Source: Myxococcota bacterium (lineage in GTDB: Bacteria; Myxococcota_A; UBA796; UBA2385). From it: DNA of 64,000 nt. Shown piece by piece: positions 18,298 to 29,911 of the stretch. Numbering within the stretch: position 1 is the first letter of the stretch; the number at the start of each line of letters is the position of its first letter. Location: assembly GCA_044344255.1 (NCBI GenBank), contig JBIJDH010000002.1, positions 288,001-352,000 of the forward strand. Direction: 5' to 3'. The notes beneath the pieces are model-generated. The model was not told the origin of the DNA and ran no database searches. It worked only from the letters and a program-made list of their open reading frames with translations. The translations under genes were made by a program, and so were the position numbers.

Positions 18298-19284
18298 ATG
18301 GCCCCGCAGCGAACTGCCTCCCTCCTCGGCCGCGCTACCTCGTTGCGCGACACCGCGTGGAGGTGGCTCCCCGCCGTGGTCGGAGTGCTGGTCTCCCCGT
18401 TCGGACTGGTCTCCAGCGTGTGGGCCGGGTGGTATCCAGCGCCGGCGGAGCTCCGCCCGCCTTCGCCCCGGTTGGTCGCCGAGGACGTAGCGGACGCGCT
18501 CTCCTTTGGCCCCTGCGTGGACGACCCTGTCGCGTTCGGCCGAAGAGATGGCCCCTGTGCGGATCAGCGCACCATCTTTGTCGATTTCGAGGCGCTGTCC
18601 CTCGACGCGCGTCGCGGCGGCGAGTGGATCTCGTACGACTTCGCCTCCGTCATCCGTCCGCTCCGCGCCGCGGAGCTGGCTGATGAGGGTGAGCTGTCCC
18701 TCGCGGTTCGGCTCGTCGTGAGCGAGGTCGGCGCCGACCGCCTGCTGAAGAACCAGTACGGGCTCGCTGAGGCCGTGGGCATCCTCTACACCGTCGAGAA
18801 CCGGATGACGGACCCGGTGCAGAACCCGGAGAACGTCGATCGTGCCCCTGACTTTCCGGGCTGCGGCCCAAGAGGGGGCTTCTGGGCCTGCGCGAACGCT
18901 GAGCAGTACCTTGGCATGGCCACTTGGCGGGCCCTCGATCCGGGCTCCCGATATCGTCCCGAGCTGCTGGAGCGGGCTGTGGACGTGGCCGTGCTCGCCT
19001 GGTACCTGCAGCGGCGGGGCTTCGTCCCCGACATCACCGAGGGCGCCACCAACTATGTCCATCGGTGCGGTGGCGCTGCATACGGTGAGCCCACCTGGCG
19101 CTGCGACGGCCACGTCGGTCGGCCTCGCTGGGACGACATCCGGGGGGCCGATCCGCACACCGGGCCCCTCGTCTTCAAGGCGCCGACGGTCTATCAGGAC
19201 CGGCACGGCTTCTACGGCCTCCGGGAGTCCATGGTGGTGGACTATGAGCCCGTCCCCGTGGCGGTCTCCGACGCCAGCGAGTGA
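18298..19284 (+). CDS. Putative cell wall hydrolase (Hydrolase_2/SleB-like)
   Basis: LAVRLVVSEVG...EAVGILYTVENR, EQY and DITEGATNY. These match the SleB/CwlJ catalytic Glu helix, the NR motif and the DxTxGA motif. Confidence 0.55.
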   Translation: MAPQRTASLLGRATSLRDTAWRWLPAVVGVLVSPFGLVSSVWAGWYPAPAELRPPSPRLVAEDVADALSFGPCVDDPVAFGRRDGPCADQRTIFVDFEALSLDARRGGEWISYDFASVIRPLRAAELADEGELSLAVRLVVSEVGADRLLKNQYGLAEAVGILYTVENRMTDPVQNPENVDRAPDFPGCGPRGGFWACANAEQYLGMATWRALDPGSRYRPELLERAVDVAVLAWYLQRRGFVPDITEGATNYVHRCGGAAYGEPTWRCDGHVGRPRWDDIRGADPHTGPLVFKAPTVYQDRHGFYGLRESMVVDYEPVPVAVSDASE

Positions 19285-19324: not shown

Positions 19325-20740
19325 TCAAGGTCCGGACTTCTTGGCCTTGGTCGCCGCGAGGTTGGAGCGCGCCCGCGCGGTGGTCTCGGCCAGGGTGCTC
19401 CCCAATCGCCGGAGGTCGGCCTCGGGCACGTCGCGGGGATCGATCGCGTAGAGGTTTGGCATGCCAGCCTTGCCCTTGACGGGGATCGGCGGCAACCGAC
19501 GGGCGGGGATGGCGTCGCCCAGGGCGTTGAAGGTCGGCTCGCTCACGATGATGCTGGTGCCCACGGAGCGGTTGAGCGACTCCAGGCGGGCGGCGAAGTT
19601 GACGGTGTCACCGATGCAGGTGAACTCCATCCGCTCGAGCGAGCCGATGTTGCCGGCCACCACGGGCCCAGTGGCGATGCCGACGCCGATGTTCAGCGGG
19701 GGGCGGCCGCTCTCCTCGGTGCCCATGCGGGCGTTCAGGGCCTCGACCGCGCGGATCATCTCCAGCGCGACGACGACCGCGCGGAGCTCCTGCTGCTCCA
19801 GGTCGAAGGGGACCCCGAAGACCGCCATGAGCCCGTCGCCCAGGAATTTGTCCAAGGTCCCCCCGTAGCGGAAGACGATGGCCACCATCTCGGTGAAGTA
19901 ATCGTTCAGCAGCTTCACGATCTCTTCGGGCTCGGTGGACTCGGCCAGCGGCGTGAAATTCCGGATGTCGGAGAAGAGGATGGTGGCGTGCCGCCGTGAG
20001 CCGCCGAGGCGGAAGCCGGCCTCGTCGGCGGTGACGAGCTCGGCGAGGTCAGGGGAGAGGTACTTGGCCAGCCGCTCTCGCTGACGCTCGACCTCGGCGC
20101 GCTGCATGGACTCCTGCTCGGCCCGGACGAGGAGCCCCTTGGAAACGAAGGCGATGACGCCGGCGAGGAGCGCGGGCAGGGTCAGGAAGGCGATTCGCAT
20201 CAGCTCGTCGCCAATGTTGATCTCGTTCTTTCCGTAGACAGAGACGGGGCTCACGGGGATGAGATGGCCGACCACCACGTAGGCAAGCACGCCCGATCCG
20301 AGGATCACCGTCACCAACGCGGAGTACATACAGGCGGGTACGCTGTACCGGAGACCCGACATCACGTTGAACAGAACGAGGGCCAAGGGGAAGAACGACT
20401 GATAGTACTCGATGGCGCCGGCGTGATTGGCCTCTGCAGCGAAGATCGCGGCGTGAAAGGTGGCCAAATCGACGAAGATGCTCACGTACTTCAGCCAGCC
20501 CATGTACTCGTCGCGGTGAGCGCGAAAATAGGCAAGCAACGCGACGCTGTACAAGACGAGGACAGAGGACTGCCCAATGAAGACCAAGTTGGCGAAGAGG
20601 GTGTTGATGCCCCACATCGTCGCAACCATTCCACCGGTGAGAATGCCGAGCACGAGGCGAATCCAGGCGACCTGGCGTTCGCCTCGCATCTCCGCGCTCC
20701 GGAGAATTTCCTGAATCTGATCGAGATTGTTCACACGCAT
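19325..20740 (-). CDS. Membrane-bound class III adenylate cyclase
   Basis: About 6 N-terminal TM helices, ILFSDIRNFT, DKFLGDG, GIATG and FTCIGDTVNFAARLES. The K/T residues indicate ATP specificity. Confidence 0.9.
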   Translation of the reverse strand: MRVNNLDQIQEILRSAEMRGERQVAWIRLVLGILTGGMVATMWGINTLFANLVFIGQSSVLVLYSVALLAYFRAHRDEYMGWLKYVSIFVDLATFHAAIFAAEANHAGAIEYYQSFFPLALVLFNVMSGLRYSVPACMYSALVTVILGSGVLAYVVVGHLIPVSPVSVYGKNEINIGDELMRIAFLTLPALLAGVIAFVSKGLLVRAEQESMQRAEVERQRERLAKYLSPDLAELVTADEAGFRLGGSRRHATILFSDIRNFTPLAESTEPEEIVKLLNDYFTEMVAIVFRYGGTLDKFLGDGLMAVFGVPFDLEQQELRAVVVALEMIRAVEALNARMGTEESGRPPLNIGVGIATGPVVAGNIGSLERMEFTCIGDTVNFAARLESLNRSVGTSIIVSEPTFNALGDAIPARRLPPIPVKGKAGMPNLYAIDPRDVPEADLRRLGSTLAETTARARSNLAATKAKKSGP

Positions 20741-22407
20741 GGGGGGAGTGGCTTCTCCGGTGCTGGCAGCGGTCGGAGGCTCATGGCTCGGACGCAGAGG
20801 GCGGTGGTGACCTCAACGCTCCGATAGTACACGATATTATCCAAGGACTTCCCTGGCATCCGGTAGAAGTCTTCGGCCGCCCAGGAGCCGTCTGGGTGCT
20901 GTGCGCCAGAGAGGTATCTCCGCGCGGCTCCCGCCACCAGGGCTGCCGTGGGGTCCGAAGCCAGCGACTCCAGGGCGAAGGCCGTCTTCATCGGTGATCC
21001 GAAGCTGCCGTCGGCGCGCTGCTCCTTCGCCCACGCCTCCCGGTCGAGCTGACGCCGGGCGGTGACCGCGGCCTCGAGCTCGGGGGTGACCAGCCCGGCG
21101 GGGAGCCGATCGACCACACGATGGAAGATCAGTCGGGCGTACGGCGCCGAGTAGAAGAGGTCTCCGTGCTCCGGCTCGTCATCGAATTGCCGAAGCAGGA
21201 GGGCGAGGTTGGCCTCGATGAGCCGCGCGTGTCCGGGCGGGTCCCAGGCCAGCAGGCCGAGGAGGAGGTGCCCCCGGACCGTCGCGCAGCGATCGAAGGG
21301 CCAGCTTCGAATTGGCTCGTCGAGCGTCGGCCGACCGTCCGGCCAGCGGGTGAACCAGACGGGCGTGGCCCCTGCGGGATCGACGTTCGGCGCCAGCAGC
21401 CGCAGCCAACCCTCGACGCGCGCCGTCGGCCGATCGGGCAGCAGGGCCGCGACGGACAGCATCATCCCGAGAGAGTCGGCGTCGGGTGGAATGCCCTGCC
21501 AGGAGCCGTACCAGCGCAGGTTGTCGGGCTCAGCGGCCTCGAAGGCGCGGAGGAGGCTGGCGGGGCGACGGGCGCCTGCCTCCCAAAGGGCGAGGAGCAC
21601 GAGCGAGGCGGGGAAGATCTGCTCCACAAGCGGCTCGTCGTGGAGGCCGAGACCCCAACGCTGCACCTCCCAGGCGCCGGTGAGCATGGGGTCGCGGTCG
21701 AGGAAGGCGATGGCCTCCTCGATGTCGCGCCGAAGGTCGCCCGATGTGGGCTCTCGACGAGGCGGCCGCCAGAGGCAGGCGAGGGCGTGGAGAGCTGCGA
21801 TGGTTTCGACGCGGTCGAGGGCCGCGCGCACCTCTTCCGCCCAGCGGCGGAGGGGGGGGGCCCAAGCTGCATCAAAGGGGAGGTTGAGCAGCCCCAAGAT
21901 CGAAGGCTCGAGCGCAGCTCGCAGCTCAGCGCGACCGGCGGCGAGGAGGCCTCGGAGAGCGTACACGGCCGTGGCGGAGGTCCGCTCGTCGGAGAGGCGA
22001 CCCCGCAGCGCAGGCCAGATCGAAGTGCCCTTAAGGAGGAGCAGAAGTGAACGAGCGGCAGGGGACAGGAGGTCGGGCGGAGTTGGGCTCCACCACTGAT
22101 CCCACCAGGCACGGCCAATATCGTCGAGGCGCGCGGCCACCTCCAGCCAAGACAGCGCCGCGTCCAGGTCGTCGTCGTCGCGGCCCTCACCGTCCGTCGG
22201 CAGGAGCTGGAGGCCAAAGTTGATCAGGGCCCGCCGTTCACCAGCGGCCCCCATGGCCGACGCGGCTCGGAGCAGGCCCCGGAGAGCAGGCCTCCGTGCG
22301 AGCAGCTCGACCCAGGCATCCGCGGCGCGGAGGGGATCGGCGTCCACGAGACCGGACGTGGGATCCGCGGGAACGTAGGGCGTTCTGAGCGGTGGGCTCC
22401 CCACCAC
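20731..22407 (-). CDS. Class II terpene cyclase / prenyltransferase (alpha/alpha barrel, QW-repeat) fold protein
   Basis: PPDADS (DxD-type), EQRADGSFGS..KTAFAL, YLSGAQHPDGSW and terminal S.EVTTALCVRAM. Start uncertain. Confidence 0.7.
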   Translation of the reverse strand: MVGSPPLRTPYVPADPTSGLVDADPLRAADAWVELLARRPALRGLLRAASAMGAAGERRALINFGLQLLPTDGEGRDDDDLDAALSWLEVAARLDDIGRAWWDQWWSPTPPDLLSPAARSLLLLLKGTSIWPALRGRLSDERTSATAVYALRGLLAAGRAELRAALEPSILGLLNLPFDAAWAPPLRRWAEEVRAALDRVETIAALHALACLWRPPRREPTSGDLRRDIEEAIAFLDRDPMLTGAWEVQRWGLGLHDEPLVEQIFPASLVLLALWEAGARRPASLLRAFEAAEPDNLRWYGSWQGIPPDADSLGMMLSVAALLPDRPTARVEGWLRLLAPNVDPAGATPVWFTRWPDGRPTLDEPIRSWPFDRCATVRGHLLLGLLAWDPPGHARLIEANLALLLRQFDDEPEHGDLFYSAPYARLIFHRVVDRLPAGLVTPELEAAVTARRQLDREAWAKEQRADGSFGSPMKTAFALESLASDPTAALVAGAARRYLSGAQHPDGSWAAEDFYRMPGKSLDNIVYYRSVEVTTALCVRAMSLRPLPAPEKPLPPCV

Positions 22408-22457
22408 GACCAGCTTTGGCCAGTCGGGCGGGGAGCCGTCTCGCTCCGGGGATCGGC

Positions 22458-22688
22458 TCAGCTCGCGGCTCGCCGGTCAGCGAAGGCAGCGTCGAGGTTC
22501 GCGGCGGCGGCTTCGGCAGCAGCGGGATCCATGCCCTTGAGCTGCCCCATGATCTCGGGGCTCACCTCGTAGCCCTCGGCGGCGATCGTCGCCTCGGGGT
22601 CCGTCAAGAGGCGGCGTCGGAAGTCGGGATCGATCACCGCGCGACCGATCAGCGAATCAGTACCCTTCTCAGAGGAATTCTTACCCAT
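22458..22688 (-). CDS. NHLP-clan (Franean1_4349/Os1348-like) RiPP leader/precursor peptide
   Basis: 76 aa containing LIGRAVIDPDFRRRLLTDPEATIAAEGYEVSPE, the RA..DxxFRxxLxxDP leader motif. Confidence 0.8.
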   Translation of the reverse strand: MGKNSSEKGTDSLIGRAVIDPDFRRRLLTDPEATIAAEGYEVSPEIMGQLKGMDPAAAEAAAANLDAAFADRRAAS

Positions 22689-23001
22689 GTCTCAAGTCCA
22701 TTGGTGTTTTGGGTTTGGGTTGGCTGCTGTCGGGAGCTGGGAGCGGGGCGCGATCCGTGCAGGGTGATGAGCCGGATCCCTCAAAGGGTGCCGGGCGGCT
22801 TGCAAGGGACCACGATTCTGGTAAGGTCGCGCAATTAGGCGGCTTATCGAGACAGACCGGCTCGGGTGCCTCGGCCAAGCGACTGCGATTTGTGGGTCAC
22901 CCGAGGGGGGGGGCGGTTGACCGCCGCCCACGGTTGAGGAGGGTCACTTTTCCTGCTAACGTGAAGTTTTAGCAACGCCCAATGCAAGGTTCGAGGATCT
23001 C

Positions 23002-24234
23002 GTGCAACCCAATGAGCGCCCCGCGCGCGCCGGGCTCCAGCTGTTGATCCGCAAGTCGGACGACGCGGGGGCGGGCTACGAGATCCGAACCGTACACAGT
23101 AGTCAGGCGTTTCTGCGAATGCGCCCAGTAAGGGCAGCGATCCGTGCGGTAGAAGAGAACGTCGTCGACGAGGCGGCGGGGAAGGTGCACGTCCTCCGGC
23201 TGGAGGGTGCAGGCTTGGTCACGGCGCAATACTTGAGGTTGAACGAGCGGGAGCGCTTTATCTGGCAGCACGTGGATGGTGACCACACCATCCAGGACAT
23301 CGCCGCTGCGCTCTTCTTTCGGTTTGGTTCACTGGACGTGCGGGACATACGTAGCTTCCTCCATCGTGCCCGACAGGCTGGGCTGATCGCGATGCAGGCG
23401 GAGACCCCTCTTCGGCAGCGTGCGGTGGCTCGGGGGGGAGCGTTGGGCCGGCTCTTGGACCGCCTCCCTCGGCTGGAGCGGCGCTGGCGCGATGTGGACG
23501 CCGGTTTCGCCCGCGCTCACGTCCTCTTCGGGTGGCTGCTGTCTCGACCCGCGAACGTGCTCTTGGCGGTGCTCGCCGGTGCGGGAGCGGCCGTCTATGC
23601 CCGTTATCGATTCTCTGGACAGCTGGGTGAGGCGGCCTGGCCATTCTTTGTCGATATCGCCCTTTGGATTGTGATCCTCCTGACCTCCATGGCCCTCCAC
23701 GAGCTGGCCCACGGTCTGCTCACCAAAGCACATGGACGGAAGGTGAAGGCCGTTGGTATGGAGCTCCTTGACTCGATCGTTCCGAGTTTCTACGTAGACA
23801 TCACCGACATGTGGATGTCCACTCAGCTTGGACGAATCGAGGTCACGCTCGCGGGTCCCTGTACCAACCTCCTCCTCGGTGGGCTGGCGGCCCTGACCGC
23901 GGGCGCCGCCCAGGCCTTGGGGGCCCCGGCCGCGCTCGGTGAGGTGCTCTCGCTGTGTGCGGACGCAAATTATGCACTTGCTATCTACACACTTTGGCCG
24001 TTCTTCGGTCTTCGAGAAGACGGCTACGAGCTGCTGACCGACGTCCTCCGCGTGCCGGCGCTGCGGCCGCGGGCGGTGCACGTCCTCCGTGAGTGGGCCG
24101 ATCGCAGCCTCCCGCGTGAGCCTGACCTCCATCTTCGAGGGGCGGCGGTGATCTACCTCGCGGGGGTGCTGGCCACCTGGATCGGGCTCCTGGTGGCGTT
24201 CCTCACCGTCGTCTCTCGGTTCGTCGGGGGCTGA
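23002..24234 (+). CDS. PqqD/RRE-domain M50 (site-2) intramembrane metallopeptidase
   Basis: YLRLNERERFIWQHVDGDHTIQDIAAAL (RRE), HELAHG, FYVDITD, AGP..N and P.....EDGY. Confidence 0.82.
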   Translation: MQPNERPARAGLQLLIRKSDDAGAGYEIRTVHSSQAFLRMRPVRAAIRAVEENVVDEAAGKVHVLRLEGAGLVTAQYLRLNERERFIWQHVDGDHTIQDIAAALFFRFGSLDVRDIRSFLHRARQAGLIAMQAETPLRQRAVARGGALGRLLDRLPRLERRWRDVDAGFARAHVLFGWLLSRPANVLLAVLAGAGAAVYARYRFSGQLGEAAWPFFVDIALWIVILLTSMALHELAHGLLTKAHGRKVKAVGMELLDSIVPSFYVDITDMWMSTQLGRIEVTLAGPCTNLLLGGLAALTAGAAQALGAPAALGEVLSLCADANYALAIYTLWPFFGLREDGYELLTDVLRVPALRPRAVHVLREWADRSLPREPDLHLRGAAVIYLAGVLATWIGLLVAFLTVVSRFVGG

Positions 24235-27200
24235 GGTCACCCTCGGAGGCCGGCGATCTTGCTTGGAGCGGGAGGTTGTCGGTGGTGTCCTCCTCTTCGG
24301 CCGCATGGGTGCGGGCGGCGGATGGGACCTCGGGGGTCCAACGACCGCGCAGGCGCGCGTGCCCCCAAGCGTCGCCGTCCTGGTCGGCCTCTTTGCAGCG
24401 CCGCTCGAGGTCGGGGATTGGGCGGTTCGACTTCAGGGCCAGACCGTACAAGAGCCGCTGAAGGTGGACCAGGTTGTATCGGTGCGCCACGACGAGCTCT
24501 GCGCTGATGTCGCCCGGGAGGGCCACTTCGAGGCGGAGGCGAGCTTCGGCGAGCCGGATGCGGAGGAGCAAGGCGTCGTGCGGATCCTCGAGGTCGGCAG
24601 TGTCGAGGCTGCCGATCACGGCCGCCGCGCCCTCCCGATCTCCGATCAAGGTGAGCGCAAGCCCGATCTCTCCGTGGAGCATCGGCGAGGCCACGGGATC
24701 GAGCCACTCTGCGGGCACTGACCCGCGGCGATCGAGCCAGACCGAGAGGGCCTCCCGATCCCCGTAGGTCGCGGCGGAGAAGAGCCCCGCCCGCAACACC
24801 TGCACTGCGACCGCCCGGCCCGGGCGCCGGCGAAGCAGGGCCCAGGCGGCCTGGAGCGAGGCACGGGACCCCTCCGGGTGGCCCACGATCGCCTGAACCA
24901 CGCTCAGATCGGCGAGGACGCCGCAATGGAGCTCGGGGTCGTCCAGGCGATCGGACAGGGCCGCGGCGGCCTCAAGGCGACTCAGCGCCAGCCGGATCTG
25001 CCCTTGACGGAGGTGGATGAGGCCCATCAAGTGCTGAGCGCCCACCTTGCCGCGGCTGTCCCGCTTCCCCGCGCTATGGGTGAGCAGGTCGCGGATCGGG
25101 CGCTCGGCCTCGGCCCACCGACAGAGCGCGACGGTGATCGTCGCCTCCATCCACGCGAGGTCAAACCTTCGCGGGGTCGGCGCGGCGGCTGAGGTGGTGA
25201 AGCGCTGCGCCTCCCTGAGGTCGCGGTCGGCGTCGTTCCATCGGCCGAGGCCGGCCTGTGCGCGGGCCAGGAGTACGGCCCATCGCAGGGCCCCCTCCGC
25301 CCGGCCCTCGAGCTCGTCGGCGGTGATGGCGTCTGTGAAGCCGGCGCGCGCTTCGTCGGCGCAGGCCGCGTAGCGGCCCTGGCGCAGGGCGCAGCGAGCG
25401 GACTCCATGCGCGCGCTGTGGCGCTCGGCGAGCGTGGCGGCCACCTCAGCGGCGCGGGCGGCGTGCGCGAGACAATCGGCGTCGCGACCGAGCTGAAAGG
25501 CAATTCGGGCCCGGGTGATCTCGATTCGATGGCGCAATGGGCCCGAGCCGGGAGCGGCTCCGCTGGGTCGGGCCAGCCAGGCCGAGGCGTCCGCGGGGCC
25601 GTGCTCGAGCAGCGCTTGCTCCGCCTCGGTCACGGCGGTCTCCCACGCGACGTCCCCGCGGTGCTCTCGCGGCGCCGCCGGGGTCCTGGGCGCCTGCCGC
25701 TCGGCCCAGGCGCGGGCGAGGCGCACCAGCGCCGCCGGGTTGCCGGCGAGCTCTCCCGAGTGGGACCAAGCGAGCTCCGGTCCTGCGTCGTCGATCATCG
25801 AGCGGGCCATCTCGGCGAGCTGGCCGGGGGTGAGCGATCTCAGCGCGATCCGCTCAGCGGGCAATCGGATGCGATCGGGCTGGTGGCTGGCCAGCACGAG
25901 CATGGCGTTGCCGTGGAGCGCGGCGAGATCGGCGGGGTCGACGCGCTCCGCGTCGTCGATGGCGATGAGCAAGGGGCGCTGCGCGACCGCCCGCCGCACC
26001 ACCCGGCCCGTGGCTGCTTGGAGGCGGCTGATGGCCGAGCGCACCTGGTGAGTGGGCCCCTCTTCCTCGTCGTCGTCCTCGGGCTCTCCCTGGTTGAGCG
26101 AGGGGACGGCCTCGAACAAGAAGCCGCGATCGTCGCCGAGCAGGTGGCGACGGGTGGCGATGGGGATGAGGGGCCCCACGAGGGCCTCCAGCACCGCGGA
26201 GAGGATGTCGGGGCGGCCGGAGAGCAGGACCTGTCGGCCTCCGCGCAGCAACACCTCGCCCCGCAGCTCGGAGAGGGCGCGGCTCAGCCCGATCCCGGGC
26301 GGTCCGTGGACGATGACCGTGGCTCGCTCTGCGTTGAGGGTGCGATCTCGCAGCAGGCGGAGCGGCCCCCGATCGCCCACCCACCGCGAGGTCAGCGCCC
26401 GCGGGCGCCAGGGCAGGGGCTGGGCAGGCTCTCCGGCGGCGCGGCAGAGGACCCACGCGACCTCGCGGGCGGAGCGCGGTCGGTCCGCGGGCGCCTTCTC
26501 CAAGAGCCGCTCCACCAAGGCGACGACCTCTGGCGGTGCGCTGGGAGCGAGGTCGGCCAGCGGGGGCGGCGTGGCGGTGCAGACCGCCAAGACGAGGTGT
26601 GCGAGGTCCGGCCCTGCGAAGGGGGGCTGCCCCGTGAGCAGCTCGTAGATGACGACCCCGAGCGCGAAGAGGTCAGCGCGAGAGTCCACCTCCATCCCGG
26701 TGAGCTGCTCGGGGGCCATGTACCGTGGGGTGCCGGTGATGGGGCCGGAGATGGGGTCACCGGGGCGCAGGTCGATCCGGCGGGAGAAGCCGAAGTCGAT
26801 CAGGCACAGGCGACCGACCGCATCCACGAGGATGTTGTCGGGCTTGACGTCCTGGTGCACGAAGCCAGCCTCGTGCACGGCGGCGAGGCCGAGCGCGAGC
26901 TCACCAGAGAGGTGGAGGATGGCCTTGAGGCGGGCCCCTGCGGGCTGGTCTTCGAGCCATCGGGTGAGCGTGCGCCCCTCGACCAGCTCCATCGCGAGCC
27001 AGGCCCAGTCTCCCTCCTCGCCGCCGCCGAGCAGCGTCACGACCCGAGGATCTGAGACCGCGCTGAGGGCGGTGACCTCGCTCGTGAGGCGATGGAAGAA
27101 GCGCGACTGGCTGCGGTGAACCAGCTTCACGGCCGCGAGCACGCCGGCCCGCTCCGCGCGGACCACCTCGCCCGCCGCGCCCTGGCCGAGGCGCTCAAGC

Positions 27201-27265
27201 AGCGTGAAGCCCCCGATCTGGGTGAGCGGCAGGGCGTCGAGGCGGTGGTTCGTCGGCTCAGACAT
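24203..27265 (-). CDS. Ser/Thr protein kinase with degenerate P-loop (STAND-like) and TPR-like helical region
   Basis: LGQGAAGEV, AAVK, HQDVKPDN, DFG and GTPRYMAPE, then GPPGIGLS and IAIDDAE. Confidence 0.85.
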   Translation of the reverse strand: MSEPTNHRLDALPLTQIGGFTLLERLGQGAAGEVVRAERAGVLAAVKLVHRSQSRFFHRLTSEVTALSAVSDPRVVTLLGGGEEGDWAWLAMELVEGRTLTRWLEDQPAGARLKAILHLSGELALGLAAVHEAGFVHQDVKPDNILVDAVGRLCLIDFGFSRRIDLRPGDPISGPITGTPRYMAPEQLTGMEVDSRADLFALGVVIYELLTGQPPFAGPDLAHLVLAVCTATPPPLADLAPSAPPEVVALVERLLEKAPADRPRSAREVAWVLCRAAGEPAQPLPWRPRALTSRWVGDRGPLRLLRDRTLNAERATVIVHGPPGIGLSRALSELRGEVLLRGGRQVLLSGRPDILSAVLEALVGPLIPIATRRHLLGDDRGFLFEAVPSLNQGEPEDDDEEEGPTHQVRSAISRLQAATGRVVRRAVAQRPLLIAIDDAERVDPADLAALHGNAMLVLASHQPDRIRLPAERIALRSLTPGQLAEMARSMIDDAGPELAWSHSGELAGNPAALVRLARAWAERQAPRTPAAPREHRGDVAWETAVTEAEQALLEHGPADASAWLARPSGAAPGSGPLRHRIEITRARIAFQLGRDADCLAHAARAAEVAATLAERHSARMESARCALRQGRYAACADEARAGFTDAITADELEGRAEGALRWAVLLARAQAGLGRWNDADRDLREAQRFTTSAAAPTPRRFDLAWMEATITVALCRWAEAERPIRDLLTHSAGKRDSRGKVGAQHLMGLIHLRQGQIRLALSRLEAAAALSDRLDDPELHCGVLADLSVVQAIVGHPEGSRASLQAAWALLRRRPGRAVAVQVLRAGLFSAATYGDREALSVWLDRRGSVPAEWLDPVASPMLHGEIGLALTLIGDREGAAAVIGSLDTADLEDPHDALLLRIRLAEARLRLEVALPGDISAELVVAHRYNLVHLQRLLYGLALKSNRPIPDLERRCKEADQDGDAWGHARLRGRWTPEVPSAARTHAAEEEDTTDNLPLQARSPASEGDLSPRRTERRR

Positions 27266-27317
27266 CCACGACCAGATAACGGGGAGCATGACCGGCGCCC
27301 TCTCTTCGCGACTACAC

Positions 27318-28181
27318 ATGCTCTCACCGCTCCGGTCGGTCAGGGCTTCGCGGGTGAAGCCCGGTGGGGGCTGTGCAGCCCTCTGGCCGCTCCTGCTCGC
27401 CACGGCCTGCTCCGCGCCGCCGGTTGCCCGTGATCGGGACCGCTACCTCGCCGTCCTCGCTGATCCTGAGCTTGAGCCGAGCGTAGGCCTCGGCGCTTGC
27501 GCGGAGATCTCGGATGATGACCTGCGCGGCGACTGCGGGCTGGCCGTGGTCAGCGCCGAGGCGCGTCGGAGGGGAGGAGCGCCCGAGCGCTGGTGTGGAG
27601 AGGTGGAGGCCGGACCGTGGCGGGACGAGTGCTACTTCGTCGCCGCCGAGGCGCATCGTAAGCGGGGGCGCGAGCAGAGCGCGGCCTGGCTCTGCGGGCA
27701 AGCGGGTCGCTTTGTGGACGACTGCGGGCAGCACCTCTGGCAGACCGCGGTGTACTCTCTCGTCCACAACAACGGCCCCGACGGGATCTCCGCCGCGCTC
27801 CCCCGCGCTCGACAGCTGTACGCACGATGGCTGCCCTTGCTCGGGGAGACCACCGACTTCAAGGTCCGCTTTTGGGAGCGCTACTATCAAAACGGCTTCG
27901 AGGGACTCGGGACGCTCGATCTGCGGTGGTGTGACCGGCTCGACCTCGAGGAAGACCGACGGCGCTGCGTCGCCGCGGCGGTGAAGCTCTACGACCGAGA
28001 GCTGGGCCCAGGGATTCAGCGGGGAAGAGTCAATCTGTGCGCCGAGCGCTTGACCTCCGGGGAGCTCCAGGACTGGGTCCACGCCGTCCCGGACCCCCGC
28101 TTCGACGCCGCCGTCGACCGTCGCCGCGTGGAGCTCTGCGGCGGCGACACGACCCCTCCTCCGCCGGCCCCGCCGCCTTGA
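27318..28181 (+). CDS. Cys-rich hypothetical lipoprotein
   Basis: Lipobox LATAC and repeated C..I......RGDC / C.......RDEC motifs. Start uncertain. Confidence 0.6.
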   Translation: MLSPLRSVRASRVKPGGGCAALWPLLLATACSAPPVARDRDRYLAVLADPELEPSVGLGACAEISDDDLRGDCGLAVVSAEARRRGGAPERWCGEVEAGPWRDECYFVAAEAHRKRGREQSAAWLCGQAGRFVDDCGQHLWQTAVYSLVHNNGPDGISAALPRARQLYARWLPLLGETTDFKVRFWERYYQNGFEGLGTLDLRWCDRLDLEEDRRRCVAAAVKLYDRELGPGIQRGRVNLCAERLTSGELQDWVHAVPDPRFDAAVDRRRVELCGGDTTPPPPAPPP

Positions 28182-28910
28182 TCAGCGGAGGTGGGCCCCG
28201 AGCTCGACGCCGGCCTGTACGAGCCACCACTCCTCGAGCGCCGTGGGGTCGAGCCCGCTCCGCTGGGTCGCCCAGCTGGCGCGGAGGAGCAGGTCCGCGA
28301 AGCTGCGATCGGTCACCCGGCGACGAAGCCCGGCCTCAAAGCTGAGGGTGGGGAGCGCCAGCGGCCCACCGTGGTAGGCGTCGAGGTCGAGGCGGCCGAA
28401 GCCGAGCCCGAAGTCGGGGCTGAAGGGGGCGGAGGGGTCACCGCGCAGCACGCCCAACACGCCGTAGTGGATGTAGTCGATGGCGATCTCTTCGGTGGCC
28501 TCCGCCTCGGCGCCAGAGGTGGGGTTGGTCGCCTCCCCGCTTGGCTCCAGCGCCACCTGTCCGGGCCAGACCGAGGTGGCCCCCCAGAGGCTGAGCCCGA
28601 GGCGGGGGCCGCTCGCTGCGCGGCTGACCGCGAAGGCGTCGTAGCGGAACATCAGCGCGCCGTGGACCCCGGACTCCGGCCAGGGGCCTGCGAGGGTGCC
28701 CGCGAGGTAGCCGAGGGCGAGGTCGGCCCCGAAGGGGGGCGGATCGTCGGGAGTGGGCGCCTGGTCGCGCCGATCCGGGGTGGAGGGCGGCGGCGCTGGG
28801 GGCGGCGGGAAGGTGATCGGCCCCTCGGCCCAGCCCTCCGAGGCGGCGCCGATCATGGCTCCGCAGAGGAGGGCGAGGCGCGAGGCGAGCGGGCCGAGGC
28901 GGGAGTTCAT
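28182..28910 (-). CDS. Hypothetical exported protein, probable small outer-membrane beta-barrel
   Basis: Signal peptide, Pro-rich linker, alternating beta-strands and terminal LVQAGVELGAHLR. Overlaps the upstream kinase stop. Confidence 0.55.
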   Translation of the reverse strand: MNSRLGPLASRLALLCGAMIGAASEGWAEGPITFPPPPAPPPSTPDRRDQAPTPDDPPPFGADLALGYLAGTLAGPWPESGVHGALMFRYDAFAVSRAASGPRLGLSLWGATSVWPGQVALEPSGEATNPTSGAEAEATEEIAIDYIHYGVLGVLRGDPSAPFSPDFGLGFGRLDLDAYHGGPLALPTLSFEAGLRRRVTDRSFADLLLRASWATQRSGLDPTALEEWWLVQAGVELGAHLR

Positions 28911-29911
28911 GAGGGCCCCGTGAGGGCCGACCAGGCCGAGAGGCCCGCCAGCCCGAGGTGATGGATGGCGGCGCGGGCGCTCTCCTCGTCGGGGAAGAGC
29001 GCGATCACGGAGCCGTCTCCGCCAGCGCCGGAGAACTTGGCCCCCAGAGAGCCCGACTCTCGGAGGGCGCGACAGGTCCGGATGAGCTCGGGGGCGCGGA
29101 GCTCCGGGACGACGGCGGCCATGTCTTCGTAGGCCTCTTGGGCGGTGTTCATCGCCACACCGAGGCGCTCGGGCTCCCCCTGCTCGAGGGCGCCGGCGGC
29201 AGCCTCGGCGAGGCTGGCGAAGAGGGCGAGGCCCTCCCGCACCGCGCGCACCGCCTCGGGGTGGAGGGGGGCGCGGAGGTCGTCCTCGTGGTGCCGATGC
29301 AGCGCGCTGAGGATGGCGCCAGTGTTCCTCGGCGCCTTGAAGGCCGCGAGCACAAAGTGGAAGTCGTGAGCGGGCCGGACGCGCCGGAGCGGCGCCGTGC
29401 CTTCGCGCCACTGCAAGAAGACCGGGGAGCCGGCGACGCAGGCGAGGGGGTCGAGGCGCCCGCACTCCACGCCGAGCAGGTCGTGCTCCAGGCGAAAGGC
29501 GAGCTCGGCCAGCTCCTCGGCGTCGAGCACGCAGCCCGCGTGTCGGGAGAGGGCGTCGAGCACGGCGAGGCTGAAGGCCGCGGACGAGGAGAAGCCTCGG
29601 CCAGGCGGCAGGGTGGAGTACACCCACAGCAAGGCGGGAGGGAGGACCAGCCCCCGCTGGTGGAGGAGCGCGGCGGCGGCGGGCACGAAGCGGAGCGCGC
29701 CGCCCGCGCGGTCGATCCGCCCGCGGATAGGCCAGCGGCCCTCTTGCAGCTCCCCGTCGAGCGCGGTGCGGACGCGCAGGTCTCGCTCCGCCTCCTCCAC
29801 GGTCACCTGGACGCTCAGGGGCAGGGGGATGGCGAGGCTGGCGCCGCCCGCCCAGTCACAATGCTCTCCGATCAAGCAGGCTCGACCTGGATATCGAACC
29901 GTCAGCGACAT
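28907..29911 (-). CDS. GHMP kinase, galactokinase-like
   Basis: PGRACLIGEHCD, PPGRGFSSSAA, CGRLD and GAKFSGAGGDG. Confidence 0.85.
   Translation of the reverse strand: MSLTVRYPGRACLIGEHCDWAGGASLAIPLPLSVQVTVEEAERDLRVRTALDGELQEGRWPIRGRIDRAGGALRFVPAAAALLHQRGLVLPPALLWVYSTLPPGRGFSSSAAFSLAVLDALSRHAGCVLDAEELAELAFRLEHDLLGVECGRLDPLACVAGSPVFLQWREGTAPLRRVRPAHDFHFVLAAFKAPRNTGAILSALHRHHEDDLRAPLHPEAVRAVREGLALFASLAEAAAGALEQGEPERLGVAMNTAQEAYEDMAAVVPELRAPELIRTCRALRESGSLGAKFSGAGGDGSVIALFPDEESARAAIHHLGLAGLSAWSALTGPS

Follow-up and report, generated by a model that had tools for sequence, protein, structure and literature searches.

A 64,000-nucleotide stretch of a Myxococcota genome (contig JBIJDH010000002.1, positions 288,001 to 352,000 of the forward strand; hereafter the window) carries four neighbouring genes, encoding a small precursor-like peptide (PEP), a terpene-cyclase-fold protein (CYC), a membrane adenylate cyclase (AC) and an M50 intramembrane metalloprotease (M50) fused to a recognition element (RRE) of ribosomally synthesised and post-translationally modified peptide (RiPP) pathways. 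The cassette to which these genes belong is real, conserved and uncharacterised in Myxococcota, and on our best reading, drawn by analogy, it would work like the PalP-PalX-PalQ and ComQ-ComX-ComP systems with a cyclisation step of the ChrPC/NctPC kind. With moderate confidence we propose that a prenyltransferase (X), encoded beside these genes in most relatives, prenylates the tail of PEP, that CYC cyclises the prenyl chain, that M50 releases the product and that the membrane domain of AC, with about six transmembrane helices (6TM), senses it, a scheme that joins observed linkage, folds and motifs to a chemistry and a binding that we infer.

The cassette in the window

The features of the locus are as follows.

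22458-22688, minus strand: PEP, precursor-like small protein of 76 aa, single copy in the genome
22461-22478, minus strand: C-terminal tail of PEP, D-R-R-A-A-S, putative core
20731-22407, minus strand: CYC, 558 aa from a GTG start, 50 nt after PEP
21763-22407, minus strand: N-terminal pseudo-prenyltransferase domain of CYC (about residues 1-215), both aspartate-rich motifs, the first (FARM) and the second (SARM), lost
20764-21750, minus strand: class II cyclase domain of CYC (residues 220-548), structural match to monodomain terpene cyclases
21475-21483, minus strand: DxD catalytic-acid motif D309-A-D311 in the class II cyclase domain of CYC
19325-20740, minus strand: AC, membrane class III adenylate cyclase of 471 aa, overlapping CYC by 10 nt
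about 20141-20671, minus strand: membrane part of AC, about six transmembrane helices judged by hydropathy and look-alikes
19460-19990, minus strand: catalytic domain of AC (PF00211)
23002-24234, plus strand: M50, 410 aa, starting 313 nt from the PEP start
23224-23388, plus strand: PqqD-like RRE, N-terminal in the M50 protein and fused to the intramembrane metalloprotease
22689-23001: divergent intergenic region of 313 nt between PEP and M50, the place of the X gene (about 0.9-1 kb) in most relatives

The coordinates that an initial annotation of the window had given for the peptide, the cyclase-fold open reading frame (ORF), the adenylate cyclase and the protease hold; in databases CYC is called from Met52 (507 aa). 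All four ORFs are intact, keep their catalytic motifs and show no sign of decay. None of the 52 called ORFs of the window (8 + 44) proved to be a YcaO, LanM/LanB or radical SAM protein or a C39 exporter in Pfam scans, in agreement with that annotation, and no sigma-70-like promoter site was found in the 313-nt intergenic region. The shift towards A/T-ending codons described for parts of the locus is present in M50, PEP and CYC, whose G+C fraction at third codon positions (GC3) is 0.77, 0.79 and 0.82 against a contig median of 0.90, based on 425 roughly called genes, and 0.91-0.94 in the housekeeping genes ribH, glyA and fabF; AC, at 0.885, is ordinary. Family searches placed PEP, AC and M50 above curated cut-offs and left CYC without any Pfam match.

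PEP exceeded the cut-offs of both PF14407 (60 bits vs 48) and NF038399, the Os1348-family NHLP clan (70.1 vs 40), and is thus a member of the Os1348/Frankia-peptide NHLP clan, which bears out the NHLP-clan call of the initial annotation; PF14407 is named in passing in PMC8939145. The score for the proteusin-type NHLP leader TIGR03793 stayed below its cut-off (23.2 < 50.9 bits). The window peptide holds no Gly-Gly site, no Trp and no Cys. Conservation concentrates at its end: in an alignment of 15 peptides Arg72, Ala74 and Ala75 reach at least 90% conservation, and mean pair identity in the family is 0.65 for residues 72-76 vs 0.38 for residues 46-69, the preceding helix. An Arg lies within the last seven residues of 24 of the 25 distinct family peptides, most of which end R-[K/R]-A-A-[S/T], with S, T, G, C, N, A or F as the final residue. 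Since the last residue varies and may be Gly, Ala or Phe, a hydroxyl side chain cannot serve as acceptor in every peptide, and with no Trp available the sequences point to the conserved Arg, the adjacent Lys/Arg or the free C-terminal carboxylate as the most likely prenyl acceptor.

AC scored above the PF00211 cut-off (E 7e-27) and retains all catalytic residues, namely the two metal-binding Asp, the Lys/Thr specificity residues and the Asn/Arg pair. We take these to have the usual roles of an ATP-specific class III cyclase, with Lys/Thr setting purine specificity, and on these grounds assign AC to the class III adenylate cyclases. Its N-terminal domain shows four strong hydropathy peaks and has its look-alikes among 6TM sensor clusters, of which none can be assigned as its family. 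The polar residues D91, N105, H106, E111 and N175 of the membrane domain are conserved. The membrane cyclase of the initial annotation is upheld, as an intact class III enzyme with a 6TM domain. A 6TM quorum sensor can regulate an adenylate cyclase in a chimera, from which the six-helix anchors of bacterial adenylate cyclases have been proposed to be receptors (PMC4821796).

The M50 protein passed the cut-offs of PF02163 and of PF05402 (PqqD), which confirms the RRE-fused site-2 protease of the initial annotation. The HExxH and distal DG motifs are intact in all 11 full-length copies aligned. The daptide protease family NF041824 was not reached (87.7 bits vs a cut-off of 300).

Conservation of the cassette

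To follow the cassette beyond the window, we compared 35 loci chosen by CYC homology, five duplicates having been dropped. The relatives were obtained with a 21-row alignment as seed; a single-protein scan of genome contigs found no relatives, and a 105-row alignment was too diverse as seed. CYC was matched at 31 of the 35 loci and PEP at 19, plus three recovered by a profile. Synteny elsewhere, whose absence was one of the refuting points named in the initial annotation, was found: PEP, CYC, AC and M50 occur together at 12 of the 35 loci, and their grouping is not by chance. The wider cassette consists of six genes, PEP, CYC, AC, M50, X and a gene for a cyclic-nucleotide (cNMP)-domain protein, and all six are present in rearranged order in the cultured Polyangium jinanense and Polyangium sp. 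15x6. The locus records are mostly from Myxococcota; some titles of metagenome-assembled genomes name other groups.

Among 41 related genomes the presence of the genes is nested, with the AC sensor domain in 14, PEP in 12, M50 in 9 and the cNMP gene in 8. The 14 genomes with the AC sensor comprise all 12 PEP genomes plus two that are 78% complete; every M50 genome has PEP and every cNMP genome has M50. Because the 41 genomes are kin and partly incomplete, the counts cannot be read as independent tests. A close CYC match was present in 15 of 401 genomes sampled across the phylum. The terminal branches of the window genes (AC 0.62, CYC 0.79, M50 0.84) are proportionate to those of X-containing loci, for instance 0.43, 0.48 and 0.74 at L022.

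The cNMP gene adjoins 11 of 12 M50 genes at the related loci and is absent from the window cluster. Its orthologue in this genome (53-64% identity to family-level copies) lies on another contig, C58, which is why the initial annotation missed it. The gene co-occurs with the protease and not with the cyclase, and its protein probably regulates processing.

Single loci depart from the common plan. Genome G027 (L103:6340-9933) has a minimal AC-X-PEP-M50 operon with no CYC match, whose peptide ends R-G-E-Y-L-A, and two cNMP-domain genes about 6 kb upstream of it; an operon of this kind fits CYC as a second-step tailoring enzyme. In genome G005 a WelO5-type 2-oxoglutarate-dependent halogenase (L030:7777-8640; PF22814, E 1e-48) stands between PEP and CYC and suggests that the terpene part is halogenated there.

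The cyclase-fold protein CYC and the putative prenyltransferase X

CYC matched TIGR01787 weakly (E 0.022), and a phmmer search with it returned 228 cluster representatives at E <= 0.001. Its AlphaFold model, built on 105 sequences (mean pLDDT, the predicted local distance difference test, 88.8), has its best structural matches in 8PAJ (Z 28.0, root-mean-square deviation (rmsd) 3.1, 303 aligned) and MstE (6SBB; Z 26.7, rmsd 3.0, 296 aligned), with non-cyclase barrels at Z <= 20.8. D309 and D311 are at least 90% conserved in 105 CYC homologues, and the acid motif of MstE is DxD, not DxDD (PMC12414744). With the beta-domain barrel and the DxD acid CYC qualifies as an MstE-like class II cyclase. 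The fold and the acid motif read initially from the sequence were thus correct; of the QW repeats read with them only two QW-like ones are recognisable. Protein farnesyltransferase-beta as the primary identity of CYC was rejected, those structures matching at Z of about 15 vs 26.7-28.0.

The family profile of CYC matches isoprenyl diphosphate synthase (IDS) structures at positions of about 40-277 and MstE/8PAK at about 300-600, and it aligns with the X family in hhalign (96.5%, E 9.2e-10). In the window protein the first Asp of SARM and the upstream Gln are replaced, and the Asp-rich motifs are gone from the near subfamily as well; an acidic run at residues 76-82 was rejected as FARM because it is not conserved. 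Judged from sequence and model, CYC joins an IDS-like domain that is catalytically eroded to a class II cyclase of the MstE type whose DxD is intact. Class II chemistry cyclises a prenyl chain and does not attach one. With the IDS-like domain eroded, CYC alone is unlikely to be the peptide modifier and is probably unable to attach a terpene by itself. The initial view of the cyclase-fold protein as the only modifier is thereby incomplete and finds no support. The likely prenyltransferase is X, encoded separately and present at 16 of the 19 loci with PEP and CYC.

X is a stand-alone protein of about 300 aa with a trans-IDS fold (model pLDDT 93.4), homologous to the N-terminal domain of CYC; it lies between M50 and PEP at L022-L025, L029, L054 and L055. 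FARM and a Gln-preceded SARM are kept, and the RRG that follows FARM in chain-elongating synthases, which use it for isopentenyl diphosphate (IPP), is missing. This loss fits the change of acceptor reported for peptide prenyltransferases of the trans-IDS-like kind (PMC13290415). Stand-alone X-like genes occur in 11 of the 12 PEP genomes and in none of the 29 others.

As X is absent from the window cluster, prenylation would here have to be supplied in trans. Two X-like genes were found in this genome:

C36:515,130-516,096: about 200 kb from the module, grouping with the module X genes (98/96)
C5:46,466-47,566: Asp-rich motifs intact, in a separate clade (100/99)

Four rows that were long or partial do not enter the tree; L053 accounts for two of them, L062 and L047 for one each. 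The C5 gene was rejected as a displaced orthologue of the module X because of its separate clade; complementation of the window cluster in trans by the C5 or the C36 gene is plausible from the sequences, and two canonical IDS genes of this genome could supply prenyl donors. X genes of the module clade stand behind a DUF58-type gene both here (L038:9131-10096, G000 C36) and in G003 (L099, placed by the look of its ORFs), with eroded motifs in the former and intact ones in the latter. X-like domains fused to radical SAM occur in two genomes without PEP (L101:130-2127 and L102:1330-3375).

Sister families and known systems

Nine distant CYC loci were fetched, and seven of them (L082:6724-11247, L087:6288-11202, L080, L081, L083, L084 and L086) combine an IDS-cyclase fusion with short peptides and a membrane His kinase. 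The peptides, one to nine in tandem, are Trp-less and about 40 aa long, and at their ends R-T-V-T-L-[F/Y] is followed by one or two small residues; all three fusions inspected keep their Asp-rich motifs. By analogy, these cassettes suggest a ComQXP-like system. No homology was found between their His-kinase sensor and the sensor domain of AC (hhalign 0.5%). At a locus of Ktedonosporobacter rubrisoli (L053:6274-16786) two IDS-cyclase fusions accompany several Cys-rich peptides, of which most have Trp as the last residue; this cluster is probably ChrPC-like. Taken with the module, these loci indicate an enzyme family that is repeatedly paired with small peptides and likewise with a membrane sensor.

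Terpene-RiPP hybrids are a known class (PMC13647313). ChrPC and NctPC yield terpene-cyclised RiPPs, their C domains cyclising the prenyl chain (PMC13290415, PMC13647313), and the present cassette resembles them in placing a prenyltransferase and an MstE-like class II cyclase, which would catalyse the same kind of reaction, beside a ribosomal peptide. As in ChrPC, an IDS-fold domain is fused N-terminally to the cyclase, as judged from the profile matches of the CYC family. Unlike ChrPC, CYC has lost FARM and SARM, and the Asp-rich motifs sit in stand-alone X and in the sister fusions; unlike both systems, the precursor is Trp-less, and the RRE-M50, AC and the cNMP protein are co-encoded.

With PalP-PalX-PalQ of Paenibacillus alvei (PMC10853753) and ComQ-ComX-ComP of Bacillus the cassette shares the clustering of a small precursor, a trans-IDS-like prenyltransferase and a membrane sensor. 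The PalX precursor is of the NHLP type, and in both systems the modification is at or near the C-terminus (PMC10853753). The differences are that the sensor is a 6TM adenylate cyclase and not a His kinase, a version present in the sister family, that no C-terminal Trp is found, that a class II cyclase and an RRE protease are added, and that the window cluster has no prenyltransferase gene beside the precursor.

Like MstE and the monodomain class II cyclases of myxobacteria (6SBB, 8PAJ, 8PAK), CYC has the beta-only (alpha/alpha)6 barrel and DxD; it differs in its identity of about 20%, its extra 215-residue pseudo-IDS domain and its peptide-linked context. The protease resembles daptide MpaP (10.1101/2023.03.08.531785), an N-terminal RRE and intramembrane site-2 protease beside a RiPP precursor; unlike in daptides, the peptide has no invariant C-terminal Thr and no MpaB/C/D/M-type enzymes stand beside the genes. 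Among the members of the PEP family, defined by PF14407 and NF038399, Os1348 of Pseudomonas sp. Os17 (PMC7726476) is the only one found to have been studied. Like PEP it lacks typical NHLP leader motifs, and it crystallised as a folded dimer. Its neighbours are GNAT, HExxH and SagB-type genes, with no isoprenoid enzymes or cyclase.

In a literature search we found no description of a cluster of NHLP peptide, prenyltransferase/cyclase and adenylate cyclase; most subscription journals lie outside its coverage, and the genome-mining tables of the ChrPC/NctPC study (Hubrich et al. 2024) could list such clusters. The statement of the initial annotation that no characterised system has this make-up stands for the wiring as a whole and fails for its parts, as the terpene-cyclised RiPPs ChrPC/NctPC and PalPXQ are published.

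The proposed pathway and its alternatives

In the first step of the proposed pathway X would transfer farnesyl or geranylgeranyl to the C-terminal tail of PEP; in this genome the transfer would occur in trans, by the C5 gene with its intact motifs or the C36 gene with its eroded ones. In the second, CYC would hold PEP or X through its dead IDS-like domain and cyclise the prenyl chain through protonation by DxD, a reaction of the kind that the ChrPC and NctPC C domains carry out. A predicted complex of X, CYC and PEP from the relative G004 scored 0.47 against 0.26 for the best control, in which CYC was replaced; the partners have pLDDT of at least 65 and the runs agree in at least 0% of contacts. 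Of 157 solved pairs 116 reached the mark for this score, and of 215 mismatched pairs 2 did so; at <= 0.60 it was reached by only 18 of the 157 solved pairs and by both mismatches, and the prediction is weak support for an assembly of the three. In the third step the RRE-M50 would bind the leader, cut at the membrane in the manner of daptide MpaP and free a short terpenyl peptide, released without a dedicated ABC exporter. Finally, the product would bind the 6TM domain of AC, whose catalytic residues are in place, and change cAMP. The idea of the initial annotation that a terpenylated peptide signal is read out as cAMP thus stays the favoured one. Precedents for single steps are PalP-PalX-PalQ (PMC10853753), MpaP (10.1101/2023.03.08.531785) and a 6TM anchor as adenylate cyclase receptor (PMC4821796). 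We put forward only tentatively the fuller version, in which a trans-IDS enzyme prenylates a non-Trp acceptor, either Arg/Lys or the C-terminal carboxylate in an R-x-A-A-S tail, a pseudo-transferase-cyclase makes the rings, and a 6TM adenylate cyclase has for its natural ligand the product that the RRE-guided site-2 protease frees or recycles.

Several observations weigh against this pathway. ComX pherotypes vary between strains, and the PEP tail, by contrast, is conserved. None of the 25 distinct family peptides contains a Trp; the characterised trans-IDS-like peptide prenyltransferases are all Trp-specific, and Trp replacement in PalQ substrates abolished activity (PMC13290415), so that the key chemistry would be without precedent. 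Arg prenylation is known only from cyanobactin enzymes, which are unrelated to X (PMC12715784). The Trp-less precursor is the main weakness of the terpenyl-peptide reading and also its main novelty. X is missing from the clusters of the window, G003, G005, G009 and G015, and no X-like gene of either kind was found in G009, a genome 88% complete. FARM and SARM are altered in the C36 copy, and the clade of the C5 gene also holds the lone copies of G005 and G015, two further genomes with X-less clusters. CYC and X are in pieces in G019 (L029), and CYC looks split in G015 (L034), which may be decay or assembly error. In G010 (90% complete) the X-PEP-CYC-AC set is intact and neither M50 nor the cNMP gene was found, so release by M50 is not obligatory; the gene combinations of G010 and G027 leave PEP, X and AC as the invariant core. 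The Arg of the phosphate-binding cassette binds phosphate in canonical cyclic-nucleotide-binding (CNB) domains. This Arg is Ala in all 12 module-type cNMP proteins among 13 aligned rows, the only row with Arg being a non-module gene. The module proteins may therefore not bind cAMP, and simple cAMP sensing by them is doubtful.

The division into an invariant core and a dispensable pair, M50 and the cNMP gene, would suit an intracellular switch resembling CaaX prenylation. Whole PEP would be prenylated near its x-A-A-S end, anchored at the inner membrane face and directly regulate AC, with M50 trimming or removing it as an off switch under the cNMP protein and no diffusible signal. Such a switch fits the single copy of PEP, its conservation over the whole length, the near absence of a core and the lack of an exporter, as well as the folded dimer of Os1348. 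We nevertheless regard it as unlikely, because RRE-M50 fusions free the cores of daptides (10.1101/2023.03.08.531785), PalX is cut to an 8-residue core (PMC10853753), the conserved polar residues of AC sit in its membrane domain, and the tandem short peptides and membrane His kinase of the sister family look like a secreted signal.

Somewhat less probable still is that PEP stays unmodified, being a scaffold or regulator cleaved by M50, and that the AC ligand is a small MstE-like product of X and CYC, a cyclic terpenoid or meroterpenoid. The lack of a Trp acceptor in PEP would then be explained, the nearest solved relatives (MstE and drimenyl diphosphate synthases) use small molecules, and the CYC homologue at L046 adjoins an ordinary polyprenyl synthase with no peptide found. 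The halogenase inside the G005 cluster points the same way, as does a DpgA/DpgB-like aromatic polyketide locus that borders the module in G003, G005, G010 and G015; at L034:2710-5264 it is a trio of DpgA (over the cut-off), a DpgB-like and a GNAT-like gene, apparently a near-core aromatic polyketide locus. As a functional partner this locus was downgraded, since the GNAT-like gene is present in 37 of the 41 genomes of the order and the adjacency probably marks an insertion site. Stand-alone X is moreover confined to PEP genomes and lacks the RRG with which IPP is bound, and related fused enzymes repeatedly adjoin unrelated short peptides.

That the window holds a reduced copy, which lost X, makes no terpenylated peptide and stays as a listener (AC) or a peptide-protease-AC circuit, is the least probable of the alternatives. 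In its favour, the cluster holds neither X nor the cNMP gene, and the module-clade X on C36 has eroded motifs. Against it, the four ORFs are intact with catalytic motifs kept and terminal branches proportionate, C5 carries an X-like paralogue with intact motifs whose clade was seen in just three genomes, all with X-less clusters, the cNMP orthologue is retained on C58, and contigs from RNA libraries lie over PEP and, in short pieces, over CYC and AC.

Transcripts and neighbouring genes

The RNA contigs come from freshwater libraries. Near-identical contigs cover the PEP ORF in three of four runs from two studies, and short pieces fall on CYC and AC; none of the contigs of the four runs lies over M50 or the flanks, which says nothing on expression level. 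The runs were found by querying with this stretch, and the contigs give neither level nor strand.

A Ser/Thr kinase gene at 24203-27403 was rejected as part of the module, being matched only in L029 among 16 loci compared. The gene at 18298-19284, which converges on AC, encodes 328 aa, matches neither Pfam nor NCBIfam and has no paralogue, and no homologue of it was found beside the module in the same 16 loci. A GHMP-family kinase with a galactokinase-like signature is encoded at 28907-29911, 4.7 kb from the module.

Implications

Trp-less precursors in a conserved cassette predict an acceptor chemistry different from that of the known trans-IDS-like peptide prenyltransferases, with cyclisation in addition. 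Since AC is co-inherited with a peptide and lipidating enzymes, it comes with a candidate for its natural ligand, and the 6TM-receptor idea becomes directly testable. Complete cassettes exist in cultured Polyangium, and the four to six genes are expressible in E. coli; the window copy, being reduced, is a poorer test object than the six-gene loci. If the proposed pathway is true, it would provide a new peptide modification together with a genetically paired ligand for the membrane anchor of an adenylate cyclase, with a parallel His-kinase version in the sister family, and would add a peptide-based route of cell signalling in Myxococcota.

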